Positions 6,335 to 47,805 of a DNA stretch of 64,000 nucleotides are shown one piece after another. Under the pieces are notes generated by a model that made no database searches, was not told where the DNA came from, and saw only the letters and a list, made by a program, of their open reading frames with translations. The position numbers and the translations under genes were made by a program. Source of the DNA: an uncultured Candidatus Saccharibacteria bacterium (lineage in GTDB: Bacteria > Patescibacteriota > Dojkabacteria > B142 > JAFGMG01); assembly GCA_964391325.1 (NCBI GenBank), contig CAYMJM010000001.1:1438-65437 (forward strand). Direction: 5' to 3'. How positions within the stretch are numbered: the first letter of the stretch is position 1; each line of letters starts with the position of its first letter.

Positions 6335-7477
6335 TTGTATAAATCTTATGTTTATTTGATGAGCAGTTCCAAAGCAATCACCAAAATAGAAATTACTACC
6401 CTTACTATCATCAAGTCTGTCTGTATACTTGTTGGACTGTATTTTGTGTGGCAGTTGAAGGCTGTTTTCTTTATGTTGTTTTTTGCCTTTATTCTTTATT
6501 CAGCATTCAACCCAGTAGTTAATAAGCTTCAGAAGCGTAATCTACCTAGATGGTTTGCTATCTTTTGTATATATCTGATGCTTTTCATCATTATTTCATT
6601 TATTACCGTTCTAGGTGCGAATGTCCTTATTGGACAGGTACAAGCTCTTTCGAAGGATTTGGATAGTATTATTATTTCATTTTTGCAGGCGTTAGAAAGG
6701 ATTTTCCCGTGGTTACAGAATCAAGTAGATTACAATGACTTTGTCCAGAGTCTTTCAAGCGAAGGGTTTCATAACATACTTTCTTCTAGAAATCTATTTA
6801 GCGCGTTTGGTGTTTTAAGTTCTGTCGGTTCAGTAGCATTGGCTGCCTTCGCTGTAATTATGGTGAGCGTGTACATGTTAGGCCGTAAAGAAAAGTTTTA
6901 CTTAGGTATAATTAAGTATTTCCCTAAAAATCATCATCAGGACTTGGCAAAATTAATGAAGAAAATTGAAGTGGGTTTGGGATCATGGTTTGTTGGGGAG
7001 CTTATTCTGATGCTATCTGTTGGTTTCTTTACTGGAGTAGGTGTAGCATTGCCCGGGTTGTTTTTTGACAGTTATACATTGGATGATTATGCCCTCCCCA
7101 TAGCATTGATAGCTGGGTTGCTGGAAGCCTTACCTAATCTGGGGCCAACTATTACTGTTATAATTTCGGCGATTATTGCTATAGGAAGTGGAGACTTGAC
7201 TACTGCAGAGAGTACCGTTACTACTTTAGCTCAAGCCTCATATGTTAGCGGGTTAGGGCTGTTAATTCAGAATTTAGAAGCTGTGTTTTTGGTCCCGGCA
7301 GTTATGAAGAAGGTTGTCGGTGTCGATCCTATTGTTACCATACTTGCAATAGTTGGAGCTTTAGGTTTGTTTGGGATTATTGGTGCACTTATAATTGTCC
7401 CTATAATAACAACAGTGCAGATAATTATTGATTTTTATAGAGAAAACAATGCTGTCAGGAAGACTTCAGGGACTTGA
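6335..7477 (+). CDS. AI-2E family transporter (PerM/UPF0118-like)
   Basis: 380 aa, 8 predicted TM helices, topology and length typical of the AI-2E family; true start may be an internal Met. Confidence 0.65.
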   Translation: MYKSYVYLMSSSKAITKIEITTLTIIKSVCILVGLYFVWQLKAVFFMLFFAFILYSAFNPVVNKLQKRNLPRWFAIFCIYLMLFIIISFITVLGANVLIGQVQALSKDLDSIIISFLQALERIFPWLQNQVDYNDFVQSLSSEGFHNILSSRNLFSAFGVLSSVGSVALAAFAVIMVSVYMLGRKEKFYLGIIKYFPKNHHQDLAKLMKKIEVGLGSWFVGELILMLSVGFFTGVGVALPGLFFDSYTLDDYALPIALIAGLLEALPNLGPTITVIISAIIAIGSGDLTTAESTVTTLAQASYVSGLGLLIQNLEAVFLVPAVMKKVVGVDPIVTILAIVGALGLFGIIGALIIVPIITTVQIIIDFYRENNAVRKTSGT

Positions 7478-30330: not shown

Positions 30331-30676
30331 AACTAATAATAAAAGGTCCGAGTACTCGAACCTTTTTGCTATATTAAGTTTACTCTTTTATTCACTTTCC
30401 TTAAATTTATTTATTAGTTTCTCCACAGCCGCTCTTTTCGAATCTGTTGTAGTTGGAGGCACTGTTTCTGTCTCGCTGGTGCTTGCTGCCTCTTCAGGTA
30501 AATCATTTGGTGAATTATCTATAGGGTCTCCTGCTGCAGGAGGTGGTACCTCAGGTGAAGGTATATTCATCCTAATTTTTTAATATATAATGATTACAAC
30601 ATACCATACTAATTTATTAAATAAAAGACTCTTTACATATATATTAATGTGAATTAGGAATTAGCGAGAAGTGTCG

Positions 30677-30777
30677 TTCTCGATACGCCAGCCTTCGGCT
30701 GGCTACTCGAACTGACAGGGTTAATATGTTAGCTCACACTGTCACTTCGAGCCTTGAGCGAAGGTAAGGGGTCGAGA
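30677..30777. repeat. structured palindromic repeat element, copy A
   Basis: Nested inverted repeats (TCTCGA...TCGAGA outer; CTCGAACTGACA...TGTCACTTCGAG inner) plus GCCAGCC-TTCG-GGCTGGC hairpin; homologous in inverted orientation to 57072-57190. Confidence 0.45.
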
Positions 30778-30893
30778 TGATCTTGTTGAAAGGTAGACAC
30801 GAATATTCGAATTAATTAATTATTGCCGACTCTTTATCAATGAGATATAATCAAACTGCGTATTTAAACAGAGTAATTAGGTATTGATACATA

Positions 30894-30969
30894 GCCGAGG
30901 TAGCTCAGTTGGTAGAGCACGCGACTGAAAATCGCGGTGTCGCCGGTTCAATCCCGGCCCTCGGCACCA
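30894..30969 (+). tRNA. tRNA-Phe(GAA)
   Basis: Cloverleaf folded by hand: acceptor GCCGAGG/CCTCGGC, D-arm GCTC/GAGC, anticodon loop CTGAAAA, T-loop TTCAATC, encoded CCA. Confidence 0.9.
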
Positions 30970-31021
30970 GGTTAATATGATTAGTACGCATAAATTGTTG
31001 AATGACATTCAATAAGAATGT

Positions 31022-31098
31022 GGGCGCCTAGCTCAACTGGCTAGAGCAATTCGTTTACACCGAATAGGTTGAGGGTTCGAGTCCCCCGGCGCCCACCA
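31022..31098 (+). tRNA. tRNA-Val(TAC)
   Basis: Acceptor GGGCGCC/GGCGCCC, anticodon stem ATTCG/CGAAT, loop TTTACAC, T-loop TTCGAGT, encoded CCA. Confidence 0.85.
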
Positions 31099-31605
31099 AT
31101 TTTTAATAGTGCCTTCATGTCAAAAATTAATAATGAACCTTGTTGTTGCTGTCCATAAGCTTTTTAAGCTTGGCTTTGGTTTATTTATTAATTTTGCAGA
31201 TGTGATTACTCCTGAATCTCAAATCCAATCTGATATACCGCCAGATAGACAGAATCAAGCAACAGTCATGCTTACGAACCTTGGCCTAACTTTGGTAATG
31301 AACAAAGGTGGATGTTTTATGAATCCGGATTTATTAGAGATGGATATCAAATAAGGGCTTTGTTCGTACAAGCTCGTAGGTACTATTTATGGTGTTGACG
31401 CGGAAGAACTTTATTTTGAAATATCTGCTCAGGACCGAGATTTATGCCTCCCTGCTCCTTGGAGAGTACAAACTGAATTGTGGGTCCAGACATTTAACAA
31501 GCTGCTGAGAGGCGATGTGGATTTACTAGGGGCCTATTCTGTGTTACAGGAAAATTATATTTGCAATTTGCGTAATTGCATTTAGTTTATGATAAAATAT
31601 GCTAT

Positions 31606-31715
31606 GCGGCAGTAGTTCAGTCCCGACATGAACCGCAAGGGTTTCATGTCGTGGATCCTCGATTTAGTGATTCGCCTTCGGCGAAAGCTAAATCGGGATT
31701 GGCTAGAACGTTTCC
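31606..31715 (+). pseudogene. 5'-half fragment of tRNA-Gly(GCC) (positions 1-32) interrupted in the D-loop by a 78-nt two-hairpin insertion
   Basis: GCGGCAGTAGTTCAGT + 78-nt insert + TGGCTAGAACGTTTCC is identical to the first 32 nt of the intact tRNA at 31739; the insert folds as CGACATGAACC-GCAA-GGGTTTCATGTCG and a 12-bp hairpin with a TTCGCC/GGCGAA inner stem. Confidence 0.5.
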
Positions 31716-31738
31716 GTATCTATTGATAAACGAATATT

Positions 31739-31815
31739 GCGGCAGTAGTTCAGTTGGCTAGAACGTTTCCTTGCCAAGGAAAAGGTCGCCGGTTCGACCC
31801 CGGTCTGCCGCTCCA
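31739..31815 (+). tRNA. tRNA-Gly(GCC)
   Basis: Acceptor GCGGCAG/CTGCCGC, anticodon stem TTTCC/GGAAA, loop TTGCCAA, T-loop TTCGACC, discriminator U, encoded CCA. Confidence 0.9.
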
Positions 31816-31920
31816 GAAATATCTTTAAGTCTAGCAAGCACATCCAAAGTACTAGCTACCGTCCACTCGAACCGGAATGTATATTCGAGTATAATGCCTT
31901 GTATTTATTAAGGTATCTTT

Positions 31921-32238
31921 ATGATCCATATGAGCAAAAATGACGATGCCAAAGGCTGGTATCTAGGGCCGTGGAACTCAAATATTGAGATCCCAATCGG
32001 ATTTGCCAATAGGGGGATAAGGGAAGAACATGTTCATCGAAGGATGAATGAGATATATTTAATTGCTAGAGGAACTAGCACGCTTGTAATTGATAATAAA
32101 CAAATAGCACTTAAAGAAGGTGACATTATTGTGGTAGAACCAAATGAAATACATATGTTTAAAGACAGTTCCGAAGATTACCTGCATTTTGTAATTCATA
32201 CCCCTTTCTCAAAAGACGACAAAGAGCTTATTACATAA
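31921..32238 (+). CDS. cupin-domain protein
   Basis: 105 aa, two-motif cupin pattern (HxH...E ... H) with GDIIVVEPNEIHMF. Confidence 0.55.
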   Translation: MIHMSKNDDAKGWYLGPWNSNIEIPIGFANRGIREEHVHRRMNEIYLIARGTSTLVIDNKQIALKEGDIIVVEPNEIHMFKDSSEDYLHFVIHTPFSKDDKELIT

Positions 32239-32256
32239 AATCTTATAGCTCAAAAA

Positions 32257-32751
32257 ATGATAATTTCAAACCGTGATGCGCAGCGCTTTTTTAACGAATT
32301 TATGCGAAATCGCCAGATAAATATAGACTTTTATGAAAGGGTGCCCGAGGAAAAGTCCGATTTTAGACTAGTTGATACAAACGAACGAAAATCAGATTCA
32401 ATAAGAGAGAGCCTTGCACACCAGATTAATGTTCAAAGGACATATATAAAGGCTGTAGAGACAGGGAATTTGAAGTTTGGCCCTTACTATTATAAAGATT
32501 TAAGCCTGAAGACGAAAAAAGATTTATTGTTGGAGGCATTAGATGCAGATTTAAGGTTGGAAGAATTATTGTCTCACGAGATCAATTGCAGAAAACTAAT
32601 TACTGTACCTTGGGACTCAAAAAAAGTAAATTCTATTGTTATGCTATGGTCATTAAATTCTCATGAAATACTACATACAGGGTGGAATTTGGCATTGATG
32701 GATGCTCTAGGCATTGACCGCTATGACTCATTAAAGCAAATGTGGGGGTAG
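32257..32751 (+). CDS. DinB/YfiT-like (DinB_2) four-helix-bundle metalloprotein
   Basis: 164 aa with spaced His residues (LAHQ..., HEILHTGWN) in predicted helices. Confidence 0.45.
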   Translation: MIISNRDAQRFFNEFMRNRQINIDFYERVPEEKSDFRLVDTNERKSDSIRESLAHQINVQRTYIKAVETGNLKFGPYYYKDLSLKTKKDLLLEALDADLRLEELLSHEINCRKLITVPWDSKKVNSIVMLWSLNSHEILHTGWNLALMDALGIDRYDSLKQMWG

Positions 32752-32867
32752 TCTTCCCCTTACTAGATGCTTATAAAAAGCTTTGCTTGTTGATATAATG
32801 AAGGTACTATGAGAATAAGATCAGCAGTATTGAAGATTATCCTAAGATACTTGAGGCAAGAGGGTCT

Positions 32868-33368
32868 GTGCTTAATTCGAAACTAAGTAACTCTTCTCTA
32901 ACAAAGCTCAGTCGAAGCGGATTCTTAATTGGCGATTATAACGCGGATGAATTCAGAAAGGACCTAGCAGAGATATTTTTAGTTGCAGTTGAAAATAAAG
33001 ATATAGCTGGATATATAGTGCTTTCAAAACGGAAAGAGTATATAAATAATAAGTACAAGGTCTGGAGCTTTGATAGTGCAAAATCTCTATATTACTCTGA
33101 ACAGGGCATAGAGTTGAAAACGATAATAGTACGAGATAAATTCAGAAGAACAGGCCTGGCTAAGAAATTATTGACTAGAGCTTTGAGGATCTCAGACCAA
33201 AAATTTCAAGCGATGTTTAGCGTTATCAGTTTGGCACCAGTACCCAATTATGCTTCATTAAACTTCCATCTTAAGAACGGTTTTAAGGTAGTTTCTATAT
33301 CACAGCCAAGAGAACTATTTGGTATTACAAATTATCAGAGCATGTTACTTATGAAAAACCTTGGCTAG
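32868..33368 (+). CDS. GNAT-family N-acetyltransferase
   Basis: 166 aa, acetyl-CoA motif A-like IIVRDKFRRTGLAKKLL. Confidence 0.55.
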   Translation: MLNSKLSNSSLTKLSRSGFLIGDYNADEFRKDLAEIFLVAVENKDIAGYIVLSKRKEYINNKYKVWSFDSAKSLYYSEQGIELKTIIVRDKFRRTGLAKKLLTRALRISDQKFQAMFSVISLAPVPNYASLNFHLKNGFKVVSISQPRELFGITNYQSMLLMKNLG

Positions 33369-33503
33369 CAATTAGTATTAATAACGAAGATTTAGTACAC
33401 CACCATGTCGCCATCTACCAGCATTTGTGATAGTATCATATTTAAGTAGCAGTATGTAGAGTATGCCGAAAAACATATTAAACTTTTTAATGAAGAGGCT
33501 TAG

Positions 33504-34433
33504 ATGGTAAAAATAGTAGGTATTGATCCAATTGTACTTTTCCCAGAGCATGTTAAAAAGCTAGAGAGCCTTGGAGAACTAACTCTTTGCGATACTGTCC
33601 CTAATGATGACGTGGAAATTATTGATCGTGTAGGAGATGCAGAAATCATCTTAGGTTTCTGGACTGCTTTGTCAAAGAGTGTCATACAGAATTTCAGTAA
33701 TGTGAAAATGATCTGTAGTGCAGCTGCAGGTTATGACTGGATAGATGTTAAAGCAGCTATAGAAAAAGAAATCACTGTTACTCACTGCCCAGGGCACAAT
33801 GCTCAAGCAGTAGCAGAACATACAGTCGGATTGTTACTCGCGGCTATGCGTCTCACCAGAAAAGCAAGCTGTGAAGTCAGAAAAGGGGAATTTTTGCCAG
33901 AGTCATATGTGGGCAAAGAACTGAAAGGGAAAACGGTTGGCATCATAGGATATGGCTCTATTGGCAAGAAAGTCGCTGAGATTTTGCAGAGAGGTTTTGG
34001 GGCCAAAATAGTATATGTTAATTCTCGAAGCTCCCGCGAAGATTTAGAGCGTTTACTAATAGTCAGTGACTTTATCTCCATCAACGCGCCCTTAAGTGAT
34101 AAAACTAGAAATCTTATTAGTAATAGAGAATTTGATTTAATGAAAGATGATGTAGTTATTGTAAATACTGGAAGAGGTGCAATTATAGATGAGATAGCAC
34201 TATTGCAAAATCTAGAAAATGGCAAAGTCTTTGCAGCAGGTCTTGACACTCTAGCCAAAGAGCCTTTCCAAGATTCAAACCCTCTCCTGTCCTATCCAAA
34301 TGTTATAATCACCCCACATATTGGTTGGAATACCAGAGAGTCGGAGTATAGGCTTTCTGCTCAGGTAGTAGAAATTATTACTGCTTTTGTCCAGGGAAAT
34401 CCAATTTATATTATTCCAGAACAAAGGAGATAG
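33504..34433 (+). CDS. D-isomer-specific 2-hydroxyacid dehydrogenase (glycerate/phosphoglycerate dehydrogenase-like)
   Basis: NAD-binding GIIGYGSIGKKVA, catalytic R/E/H region (PHIGWNTRES). Confidence 0.8.
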   Translation: MVKIVGIDPIVLFPEHVKKLESLGELTLCDTVPNDDVEIIDRVGDAEIILGFWTALSKSVIQNFSNVKMICSAAAGYDWIDVKAAIEKEITVTHCPGHNAQAVAEHTVGLLLAAMRLTRKASCEVRKGEFLPESYVGKELKGKTVGIIGYGSIGKKVAEILQRGFGAKIVYVNSRSSREDLERLLIVSDFISINAPLSDKTRNLISNREFDLMKDDVVIVNTGRGAIIDEIALLQNLENGKVFAAGLDTLAKEPFQDSNPLLSYPNVIITPHIGWNTRESEYRLSAQVVEIITAFVQGNPIYIIPEQRR

Positions 34434-34436
34434 CAC

Positions 34437-35435
34437 ATGGACCAAGAACCAATAAATCTTCAATATACGACAATAAAAGATCCATTGCCGGATTTTATTT
34501 ATGATGGATTGGCTCCCTACTCGAAAGTAGCCAATGCTTATAAGCCACAACCAATTGAACTAGTCGAGAAATTAGCAAAAAAGCATAATTTGCCAAAAGA
34601 AATGATTTATTTGACTGCAGGTATAGACGAGGCGATACAAATGTTTGCTAAAGCTTATGGGCAGAGCGCCTATGTGTTTACACCTACGTATGTTGTTTAT
34701 GCTGATGTAGAAGAGTTTGGTGGTAAGTTGACGCAAATCCCTTCTGTACGGGGTGCAGGATATATTATTGAAACTGAGGCTATCCAAGATGCTACGCTTA
34801 TATATCTTGCAAATCCGAATAACCCATCTGGAATTACAAGTAGAGAAAATGTGTTAAAGCTGATCAGGAACAATCCTCACGCTAAGGTAGCAATTGATGA
34901 AGCTTATGGTGAATTTGCTGACCTTTCAGTTATAAATGAGGTAGAAAAATTTTCTCATATGGCTGTCTTTCGTAGTTTTTCAAAGGCTTATTCTATGGCT
35001 GGTAATCGTATAGGCTATATTGTTGCACATCCTGAGGTAATAGAGGTTGTTAAGAATAAAAGTCAATGGTCTAATGCTTCCTATCTTTCGGTAGGAGCGG
35101 CGATAATCGCACTAGATCACGAGAATTATTTTTCAAACATACGAGCAGACATTAATCAAAGGTGCAAAGAATTTGTATCGTTCCTTAAAGGGGCCGGGTT
35201 CTCTGTTTTCCCTTCAAGAATAAACGCAGTGCTTATTAAGTTTCAATCAGAAGCTGAAGCAACCACTTTCGTTAGTTATTTAAGCGAGAATAACTTTATA
35301 GTCAGCCACGGCAATGGCAATAGTAATATCGGTCTTGATAGCTCTTTCGTCAGAATAGCTATTGGAAACGAAGGTCAAATGGGGAGATTAAAAGATATAA
35401 TTTCCAAATACCGAAATAAGTTAGCCCACCAATAA
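34437..35435 (+). CDS. class I/II PLP-dependent aminotransferase (HisC/CobD-like)
   Basis: NPNNPSG, IDEAYGEF, FSKAYSMAGNRIGY (PLP-lysine region). Confidence 0.75.
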   Translation: MDQEPINLQYTTIKDPLPDFIYDGLAPYSKVANAYKPQPIELVEKLAKKHNLPKEMIYLTAGIDEAIQMFAKAYGQSAYVFTPTYVVYADVEEFGGKLTQIPSVRGAGYIIETEAIQDATLIYLANPNNPSGITSRENVLKLIRNNPHAKVAIDEAYGEFADLSVINEVEKFSHMAVFRSFSKAYSMAGNRIGYIVAHPEVIEVVKNKSQWSNASYLSVGAAIIALDHENYFSNIRADINQRCKEFVSFLKGAGFSVFPSRINAVLIKFQSEAEATTFVSYLSENNFIVSHGNGNSNIGLDSSFVRIAIGNEGQMGRLKDIISKYRNKLAHQ

Positions 35436-35693
35436 AAATATTAGACTATATTCTTCCGTTTAACATCTGCGATTTTAACAGACCAATAATTTTATTACGC
35501 GGACATTTACCCCCTCTTTGCTAATTTATATAACTATGATACAATCCTCAGCATGTTTGATTGCCCACCGGAAACAACACCCGAAGCGTTGCCTGTTGCT
35601 CGCTTACACCATTTTACTAAGTGGCTAGAACTAATGGATTTAGCCCATTAAATAGACGCTAATTCATTAGGGGAATTCCCTCAAAGTGGAATA

Positions 35694-46024: not shown

Positions 46025-46097
46025 AGCTGGTTGTGAGAGTCGAACTCACGACCTATCCCTTACGAAGGGAGTGCTCTACCAACTGAGCTAAACCAGC
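46025..46097 (-). tRNA. tRNA-Thr(CGT)
   Basis: Acceptor GCTGGTT/AACCAGC, D-arm GCTC/GAGC, anticodon loop TTCGTAA, T-arm GTGAG-TTCGACT-CTCAC; one C-U mismatch at 27:43; no encoded CCA. Confidence 0.8.
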
Positions 46098-47667: not shown

Positions 47668-47686
47668 AGGTTTGTATTGATAAAAA

Positions 47687-47759
47687 AGCGAACGACGAGA
47701 TTCGAACCCGCGACCTCTTCCTTGGGAAGGAAGCGTTCTACCAACTGAACTACGTTCGC
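47687..47759 (-). tRNA. tRNA-Gly(CCC)
   Basis: Acceptor GCGAACG/CGTTCGC, anticodon stem CTTCC/GGAAG, loop TTCCCAA, T-arm GCGGG-TTCGAAT-CTCGT (two G-U pairs), discriminator U, followed by a T-run. Confidence 0.85.
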
Positions 47760-47805
47760 TTATACCTAGATATTAATACTTTTCCGTTGATTTGAAAAGA
47801 GACTG

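Follow-up and report, generated by a model that had tools for sequence, protein, structure and literature searches.

A probable relic of tRNA-Gly(GCC), split by a small palindromic insert, upstream of the intact gene in a Dojkabacteria genome

Introduction

Why would a bacterial genome keep the first half of a transfer RNA (tRNA) gene, split by a hairpin-forming insert, just upstream of the intact gene? The question is raised by a stretch of 64,000 nt (hereafter, the window) from an uncultured Candidatus Saccharibacteria bacterium placed by GTDB in Dojkabacteria (assembly GCA_964391325.1, contig CAYMJM010000001.1, positions 1,438 to 65,437 of the forward strand), in which the 5' part of tRNA-Gly(GCC) occurs a second time upstream of the functional gene and is interrupted in the D-loop by an insert that we call X. 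Proteins encoded near the locus, together with matches found through its tRNAs, likewise assign the DNA to Candidatus Dojkabacteria within Patescibacteria. Three possibilities had been raised in an earlier note on this DNA: a structured small RNA (sRNA) derived from a tRNA, an unconventional scar of integration, and what is left of a small RNA element, either mobile or self-processing.

Our preferred reading, which we hold with moderate confidence, is that a duplicated or former tRNA-Gly(GCC) left this 5' fragment behind as a relic, which was disrupted by a small palindromic insertion and now probably lies in the leader of the functional gene, at a hot spot of tRNA recombination. The fragment looks like a product of recombination, not like a novel gene for an RNA or a mobile element that is still active. 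Both kinds of event involved, that is, tRNA gene remnants at recombination hot spots and palindromic insertions, are known. Taken as a single relic, the fragment is of little importance, and its recurrence elsewhere, treated below, is the only part of real interest.

Organization of the Locus

The features of the locus, in coordinates of the window, are as follows:

30894, 31022 and 31739 (starts), plus strand: tRNA-Phe, tRNA-Val and tRNA-Gly(GCC), found by ARAGORN and Rfam
31590–31598, plus strand: candidate promoter, extended -10-like TGATAAAAT, ending 7 nt before piece A (read from the sequence)
31606–31621, plus strand: piece A, tRNA-Gly nt 1–16 (5' acceptor strand, 5' strand of the D-stem, start of the D-loop), 16/16 identical to 31739–31754
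31622–31699, plus strand: insert X, 78 nt, predicted to fold into two abutting hairpins (31622–31654 and 31655–31699)
31700–31715, plus strand: piece B, tRNA-Gly nt 17–32 (rest of the D-loop, 3' strand of the D-stem, nt 26, 5' anticodon-stem strand), identical to 31755–31770
31716–31738, plus strand: spacer Y, 23 nt, AT-rich
31724–31732, plus strand: weaker putative -10-like TGATAAACG, within spacer Y
31739–31815, plus strand: intact tRNA-Gly(GCC) with encoded CCA, 77 nt (ARAGORN; Rfam RF00005, 66.8 bits)

Two exact repeats define the fragment. The first, TGCGGCAGTAGTTCAGT, lies at 31605–31621 and again, 100% identical and with a spacing of 133, at 31738–31754; the second, TTGGCTAGAACGTTTCC, lies at 31699–31715 and 31754–31770, also 100% identical and collinear with tRNA-Gly(GCC). 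Each of these 17-mers has a BLAST E of about 1e-3 against the 64-kb window and, since the two are also mutually collinear, a chance origin is excluded. Pieces A and B jointly make up nt 1–32 of the tRNA, ending at the final base of the 5' anticodon-stem strand, so that the copy 133 nt upstream of the gene is as the earlier note had described it. Its claim of a 78-nt insert splitting the D-loop was also borne out: X is exactly 78 nt long, with one ambiguous T allowing its placement at 31622–31699 or 31621–31698 (D-loop 16/17 or 17/18). The region 31606–31715 is not recognized as a tRNA by ARAGORN or Rfam, even at E <= 10, and everything 3' of nt 32 is absent.

The candidate promoter TGATAAAAT was not picked up by a consensus promoter scan, there being no -35 box at 16–18 nt. 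The distance from TGATAAACG to the intact gene equals that from TGATAAAAT to piece A. Compared by eye, spacer Y and the 21 nt upstream of piece A share about 12 of 21 positions (~55%).

The arrangement is base-for-base the same in nine independent ENA/Logan contigs and one JGI contig, all from different samples. Two single-nucleotide polymorphisms (SNPs) segregate in the fragment region among these contigs, 31602 C/T and 31710 G/A, the latter in piece B at fragment tRNA position 26. The fragment has also a diverged orthologue in a sister species (see below). Because of these independent contigs and this orthologue, an artefact of assembly or chimera formation, which the earlier note had listed among the findings that would refute it, is itself refuted and retains practically no probability; the ten identical contigs come from different assemblers as well as samples, and 17-nt repeats are shorter than typical assembly k-mers.

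Between tRNA-Val and piece A lies a spacer of 507 nt (31099–31605), with no open reading frame longer than 81 aa, no Rfam match and no excess of structure. Among strains, this spacer has 12 SNPs and a 7-nt indel within 31115–31411 (300 nt) and a single SNP (31602) within 31412–31605, whereas X is free of SNPs.

The Insert

Insert X has a predicted fold of -42.1 kcal/mol (z = -6.65), a stability reached by none of 200 shuffled sequences. The two stable hairpins of the earlier note therefore stand, with their details corrected. Hairpin 1 consists of 9 bp, a bulge and 2 bp, closed by a loop of 5 nt, GCAAG, which can also be read as a GCAA tetraloop plus a bulged G, and hairpin 2 of 4 + 9 bp with an internal loop, of which a 6-bp UUCGCC/GGCGAA helix capped by a 3-nt loop forms the inner part. 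In the placement 31621–31698, the terminal inverted repeat of X is only 6 nt long, TCCCGA (31621–31626) and TCGGGA (31693–31698). The flanks of X, ..TTCAGT and TGGCTA.., share one T, with no identical crossover core of 6–8 bp, and a target-site duplication around X amounts to 0–1 nt, the ambiguous T alone.

Short palindromic elements resembling miniature inverted-repeat transposable elements (MITEs), such as the Rickettsia palindromic elements and the Correia elements of Neisseria, can sit inside genes, RNA genes included. X is like them in its length of 78 nt, its hairpins, its short terminal inverted repeat and its precise insertion, but differs in being single-copy in the DNA examined, in having no target-site duplication and in having no relatives in the collections searched. 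A multicopy mobile element, which the earlier note had held possible, is not what we found. No second copy of either hairpin was detected in the 64-kb window (<=3 mismatches; blastn-short), and a covariance model of A plus the left part of X recovered only the two orthologues from 15 related loci totalling 258 kb. Scans of viral (three contig scans), phage and plasmid collections gave nothing related to X, with a single 26-nt chance match in a haloarchaeal plasmid. When metagenomes were scanned with the 20-mer spanning the junction of A and X, only the same species was found, plus two chance matches in GC-rich coding DNA. In the Pfam listings of the called genes of the contig covering 29.6–42.2 kb of the window (12.6 kb), there was no integrase or transposase.

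Two long hairpins occur in the spacer between tRNA-Gly(UCC) and a cupin gene in GCA_964444125.1 (our contig L011, 9658–9750), namely AGATTTAGT..ACTAAATCT and ATCCCGTAAA..TTTACGGGAT. Motifs common to their stems and hairpin 2 of X are GATTTAGT, CTAAATC and ATCC.CG..CGGGAT, and CATGTCG is shared too. The alignment score of X with these hairpins is not above that of shuffles, and the resemblance may be due to chance.

Searches for known RNA families returned only the five tRNAs, both with Rfam gathering thresholds over the whole window and with E <= 10 over 31350–31950 and 30600–31650. Self-cleaving ribozymes (hammerhead, twister, pistol, hatchet and HDV-like) had no match at E <= 10 in 31350–31950, and the self-processing RNA of the earlier note thus found no counterpart among ribozyme families.

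Two classes of intron were considered for X and rejected. The group I introns described in tRNA genes of Patescibacteria are longer than 200 nt, lie in the anticodon loop (e.g., 35/36), match Rfam intron models and self-splice; they are the only tRNA introns of that report, all in the anticodon loop (PMC13011429). X resembles them in interrupting a tRNA gene of the same phylum, but it is 78 nt long, lies in the D-loop at 16/17, matches no Rfam model at E <= 10, and its host gene is truncated, in agreement with the earlier note, which had set a group I intron aside. An intron of the archaeal bulge-helix-bulge type was likewise rejected: on inspection, the junctions give only a continuous 9-bp helix, CAGUCCCGA/UCGGGAUUG, without 3-nt bulges. 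To our knowledge, the archaeal splicing endonuclease is not known from bacteria.

The Fragment in a Sister Species

A sister species, represented by contigs L019 and L029 of run SRR17161168, carries an orthologue of the fragment. The two contigs join through an overlap within tRNA-Gly:

L019 12552–12705 joined to L029 15322–15098, reverse strand: sister tRNA-Gly region (30-nt overlap, one run)

The two species are 74% identical in DsbB and 87% in RNR, and their genes are 69–73% identical at the nucleotide level. In the sister, the order is tRNA-Val, 76 nt, GCAGCAGTAGTTCAGT (A'), about 84 nt corresponding to X (X'), 19 AT-rich nt and an intact tRNA-Gly(GCC). A' matches piece A at 15 of 16 positions (the change is G3A) and is preceded by a similar -10-like motif, TATTGATAAT; piece B is absent.

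The degree of conservation varies along the fragment. A' and the left part of X' are 83.6% identical to the window over 61 nt, compared with 69–73% in coding DNA. The left 44 nt of X are 80% identical in the sister and its right part is partly deleted. In the sister, 9 of the 32 pairs of X are broken and 8 deleted, one has undergone a compensatory change (A-U to U-A) and one has changed from A-U to G-U. In hairpin 1 the apex no longer pairs and the basal stem is kept; in hairpin 2 the inner helix has been deleted and the basal pairs are gone, six pairs remaining. X' folds no better than shuffled sequences (z = -1.65; with A', z = -0.18), and covariation measures for X are not above those of shuffles, with almost no power in a comparison of two species only. 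The structured sRNA of the earlier note, taken as a conserved one, loses ground here, since 17 of 32 pairs are broken or deleted and a single change is compensatory. That note had also named a lack of secondary-structure conservation as a finding that would count against it; such a lack is seen in part, in the pairs lost from the sister. The 5' 61 nt, at 84% identity where coding DNA has about 70%, speak against a purely neutral relic.

The functional tRNA-Gly(GCC) of the sister has the acceptor stem GCGAACG/CGTTCGC, the anticodon stem TCTCC/GGAGA and no encoded CCA. Its 3' acceptor strand CGTTCGC and 3' anticodon-stem strand GGAGA are shared with the distant contig L027 (8056–8101), which carries only the 3' part of a tRNA-Gly, and not with the window. 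Moreover, 85 nt downstream of the sister gene we found 10 nt, GTCTGCCGCT, that reproduce exactly the 3' end of the window type, with a T-rich run after them; we estimate the chance of this match at about 2e-4 in 200 nt. As ends of the old type flank the new allele, and L027 shares its strands, the sequences suggest a gene replacement in the sister, in which a new, foreign-looking tRNA-Gly allele became lodged between the 5' and 3' ends of the old gene. The similarity of the sister region downstream of tRNA-Gly to the right part of X plus piece B was not significant.

Absence from Outgroups and the Hypothesis of an Integration Scar

More distant relatives lack the half copy. In contigs L033 and L034 (RNR 79% identical), tRNA-Val is followed after 14 nt by tRNA-Gly; in L030 (RNR 74%), tRNA-Phe is followed after 13 nt by tRNA-Gly; and in L020, tRNA-Val and tRNA-Gly are 2.1 kb apart, with genes between them and no fragment. 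Debris of the three genes that separate tRNA-Val from tRNA-Gly in L020 was sought in the 507-nt spacer of the window, and none was found. A scan of a representative genome collection, made up of species other than that of the window, with the 5' half of tRNA-Gly revealed four other Patescibacteria with the same half, none of them with the fragment. Because the outgroups are without it and the sister has it at the same place, the fragment is a derived trait, vertically inherited at a single locus within a small clade. The broad family of readings in the earlier note that sees a scar of integration or the remnant of an element is supported by a sequence that is derived, single-copy and decaying in the sister.

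A more specific reading within this family is an attachment-site (att) scar. It supposes that a recombinase crossed over in the D-loop, that an element integrated upstream of the tRNA and that nearly all of it was later deleted. Piece A would then represent the 5' end of the chromosomal gene, displaced (attL), and X the left end of the element; spacer Y and the second copy of A would be a promoter and 5' end that the element brought with it, now joined to the remainder of the chromosomal gene (attR). Islands of this kind have been reported upstream of tRNA-Arg in Klebsiella, at the D-loop sublocation, with a repeat that runs from the 5' acceptor strand through the D-stem into part of the D-loop (bioRxiv 10.1101/2020.11.02.365908).

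The window resembles the att scars of islands and prophages in having a direct repeat of a tRNA segment beside the intact gene, at a hot spot of gene order, and the repeat TGCGGCAGTAGTTCAGT spans the same parts of the tRNA as in Klebsiella. The layout of the sister, with A', X', 19 nt and the intact gene but no piece B, is the one predicted, and its tRNA allele looks foreign at a locus that is a hot spot of turnover. In addition, the start of X, ...CAT GAAC, could serve as a core-type site by mimicking the 3' strand of the D-stem. The window differs in having no island or integrase between the repeats, in a fragment that runs past the insert to nt 32 and in the lack of a duplicated core. Only 116 nt separate the two copies of A, and there is no integrase in the surrounding 12 kb. 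Piece B directly follows X without a duplicated core of 6–8 bp (there is one ambiguous T), and because both halves of the D-loop flank X in this way, the junction is unlike that of a tyrosine recombinase. Piece A is separated from tRNA-Val by 507 nt in the window and by 76 nt in the sister, and since these distances exceed the 14-nt gap between tRNA-Val and tRNA-Gly in outgroups, A is not simply an undisturbed chromosomal 5' end. Nor was anything related to X present in the viral, phage and plasmid collections. On balance, we regard such a D-loop scar as rather unlikely; the usual 3' remnant of att integration had already been dismissed in the earlier note, and we agree.

A Possible Role in Cis

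The conservation of the left part of the fragment raises another hypothesis, namely a functional leader, sRNA or DNA site acting in cis on the expression or maturation of tRNA-Gly. The block in question would comprise the promoter, the tRNA-like 16 nt, a 7-bp CGACATG/CATGTCG stem and ATCCUCGAUUU. Possible mechanisms are an acceptor-like strand in the leader that pairs alternatively with the 3' acceptor strand of the tRNA, or a protein bound to the inverted repeat.

Such a role is consistent with 61 nt that are 83.6% identical where coding DNA is about 70% identical, with the retention of six pairs in hairpin 2 and of the basal stem in hairpin 1, one A-U to U-A and one A-U to G-U change included, and with the absence of SNPs from X among strains that differ at 12 sites in 31115–31411. 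Folding of the whole precursor is predicted to pair the first acceptor-like strand with the 3' acceptor strand, and A' of the sister can pair (6/7) with the 3' strand of the old type that survives 85 nt past the gene. The same A', however, cannot pair with the 3' strand of its own tRNA. All outgroups lack the fragment, so it answers no general requirement; the sister has 17 of 32 pairs broken or deleted, and the fold of its version is no more stable than that of shuffled sequences; covariation is not above shuffles (two sequences, with almost no power); and no known RNA family matches. A dedicated regulatory site is accordingly, in our view, doubtful.

Similar Remnants in a Related Genome

Contig L033 (JGI 3300021843 Ga0226657_10000776), whose arrangement is the same in L034 (GCA_964444125.1 CAYUFB010000004.1), carries two further remnants of tRNA genes with hairpin inserts. 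In L033 7066–7504, a direct repeat of 141 nt, 93–96% identical, stands ahead of tRNA-Val(TAC); it is made up of 129 nt of the upstream region and nt 1–12 of tRNA-Val. The repeat is followed by a 38-nt hairpin insert, H (7207–7244), by nt 13–22 of tRNA-Val (7245–7254) and by about 45 unrelated nt. In L034, the NCBI assembly has a run of N within the first repeat copy. Judged from the sequences, the tRNA-Val arrangement has the same architecture as the tRNA-Gly fragment of the window, with an unrelated insert.

The second remnant (L033 7643–7727) lies 49 nt downstream of the intact tRNA-Gly(GCC) and is the 3' part of a different tRNA-Gly allele, composed of GTCGCGAGT, a 57-nt two-hairpin insert (T57) and TTCGAATCTCGTCTGCCAC, the insertion being in the T-loop. 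Its T-arm and acceptor are of the type found in L018 and the window, unlike those of the functional gene of the genome (GCGGATG/CATCCGC). There is no significant similarity between X and either insert, H or T57, or the tRNA-Val repeat unit.

Pseudogenes of tRNAs that arise by tandem duplication are a further point of comparison. As in these, the window has a truncated copy in the same orientation just upstream of its parent gene. The tRNA-Val of L033 is a clear case of tandem repetition (141 nt, 93–96% identical), whereas in the window the repeat starts essentially at position 1 of the tRNA (the flanks are ~55% alike) and the copy is altered by a structured insertion instead of decay by point mutations.

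The three remnants could also be explained if X were an intervening sequence, either intron-like or a hairpin excised by RNase III, of a once-functional tRNA-Gly whose place was taken over by an uninterrupted copy; the inserts of the tRNA-Val and tRNA-Gly remnants of L033 would be of the same kind. All three insertions are precise, with no tRNA bases lost or gained, lie in a D- or T-arm and have almost unmutated flanks, and the ends of X can form a closing helix, TCCCGA/UCGGGA. Patescibacteria are, besides, unusually rich in introns and rRNA insertions (PMC13011429). Against this, no tRNA was found whose only gene copy is interrupted; X, which has no Rfam match, falls far short of the size of a group I intron; its junctions form by inspection a continuous helix with no bulge-helix-bulge; and X, H and the T-loop insert share no sequence. 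We therefore consider intervening sequences very unlikely.

A last explanation, to which we give a low probability, is that an undescribed process may place short, unrelated hairpins precisely into the D- and T-arms of tRNA genes in Dojkabacteria, a group within the Candidate Phyla Radiation (CPR), leaving nested ends of the old gene around a replacement gene. The process may take the form of mini-insertions targeted to loops, of excised intervening sequences or of the insertion of a new tRNA copy into an old one, and the fragment of the window would be one of at least three footprints. If the recurrence, three remnants in two to three species alongside exchanged tRNA-Gly alleles still flanked by ends of the old gene, does have a mechanism behind it, it would point to a new route for the turnover of essential tRNA genes in the streamlined, DNA-scavenging Patescibacteria, or to a new family of insertions that target tRNA arms. 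As a matter of annotation, 5' tRNA fragments with structured inserts upstream of intact CPR genes can break assemblies and mislead tRNA counts.

Proposed History of the Fragment

Returning to the reading that we prefer, a relic of tRNA-Gly disrupted by a palindromic insertion, we infer the following order of events. The fragment would have originated in the common ancestor of the window species and its sister, at the hot spot of rearrangement and gene replacement formed by the tRNA-Phe, tRNA-Val and tRNA-Gly genes. A partial duplication or a recombination event may first have left a 5' fragment upstream of the intact gene, and a small hairpin element may then have inserted precisely into its D-loop; only a copy that the cell can do without could keep such an insertion. 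As a tRNA the fragment is probably without function, and its most likely place is in the 5' leader of the precursor of tRNA-Gly, which would be transcribed from the extended -10 of the fragment itself, TGATAAAAT, with the 133-nt leader removed by RNase P. A place in the leader could explain why the 61 nt proximal to the promoter are conserved alongside decay of the distal part.

Several observations weigh against this history. The 61 nt of A plus the left part of X are 83.6% identical between species whose coding DNA is 69–73% identical, and a neutral relic of that age should be unalignable. As this conservation exceeds that of coding DNA, some constraint on this segment is indicated, the source of which could be a role as promoter or leader, the inverted repeat CGACATG..CATGTCG as a binding site for a protein, or past gene conversion. 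Pieces A and B match the gene at 32 of 32 positions while spacer Y is only ~55% identical to its counterpart, a combination that ongoing gene conversion or selection fits better than a simple old tandem duplication does. Statistics on structure are weak with an element present in two species only. Finally, random decay does not predict three remnants (that of the window, the tRNA-Val and the 3' tRNA-Gly of L033) with precise hairpin insertions in D- or T-arms and almost unmutated flanking tRNA bases, which hints at a mechanism that links remnant and insertion.

Gene Order and Neighboring Sequences

The gene order around the tRNA-Phe, tRNA-Val and tRNA-Gly cluster differed in every species examined, one inversion being among the changes. 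Only in the species of the window is a 4.7-kb block of five genes found between tRNA-Gly(GCC) and the RNR gene:

31921–35435: cupin, DinB-like, GNAT acetyltransferase, 2-hydroxyacid dehydrogenase and aminotransferase genes (compared with L011, L020, L029 and L030)

In the sister, the same interval contains genes for a kinase-like protein, a 235-aa protein, a deaminase and a RibD_C protein instead. The nearest homologue of the cupin (80% identical) lies, together with a GNAT gene, just downstream of tRNA-Gly(UCC) in GCA_964444125.1 (L011 9586–10865). The five-gene block resembles an island tied to tRNA-Gly genes, with no integrase or 3' tRNA repeat found, and no 3' tRNA-Gly remnant was present at the far end of the cupin-aminotransferase block. 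Contigs reached through the cupin homologues P0004 and P0124 and the RNR homologue P0154 had no informative tRNA-Gly locus.

Near the far end of the block, in a noncoding stretch past the aminotransferase gene, AAGTGGCTAGAACTAATGG (35615–35632) resembles the tRNA-Gly D-arm AGTTGGCTAGAAC at 12 of 13 positions with one gap, possibly by chance. Elsewhere in the window, tRNA-Gly(CCC) and tRNA-Thr(CGT) form a pair (47686–47760 and 46025–46097, minus strand) that is syntenic in the sister and in L030, with no fragments seen nearby. This tRNA-Gly(CCC) is 90% identical to tRNA-Gly(GCC) over 53 nt.

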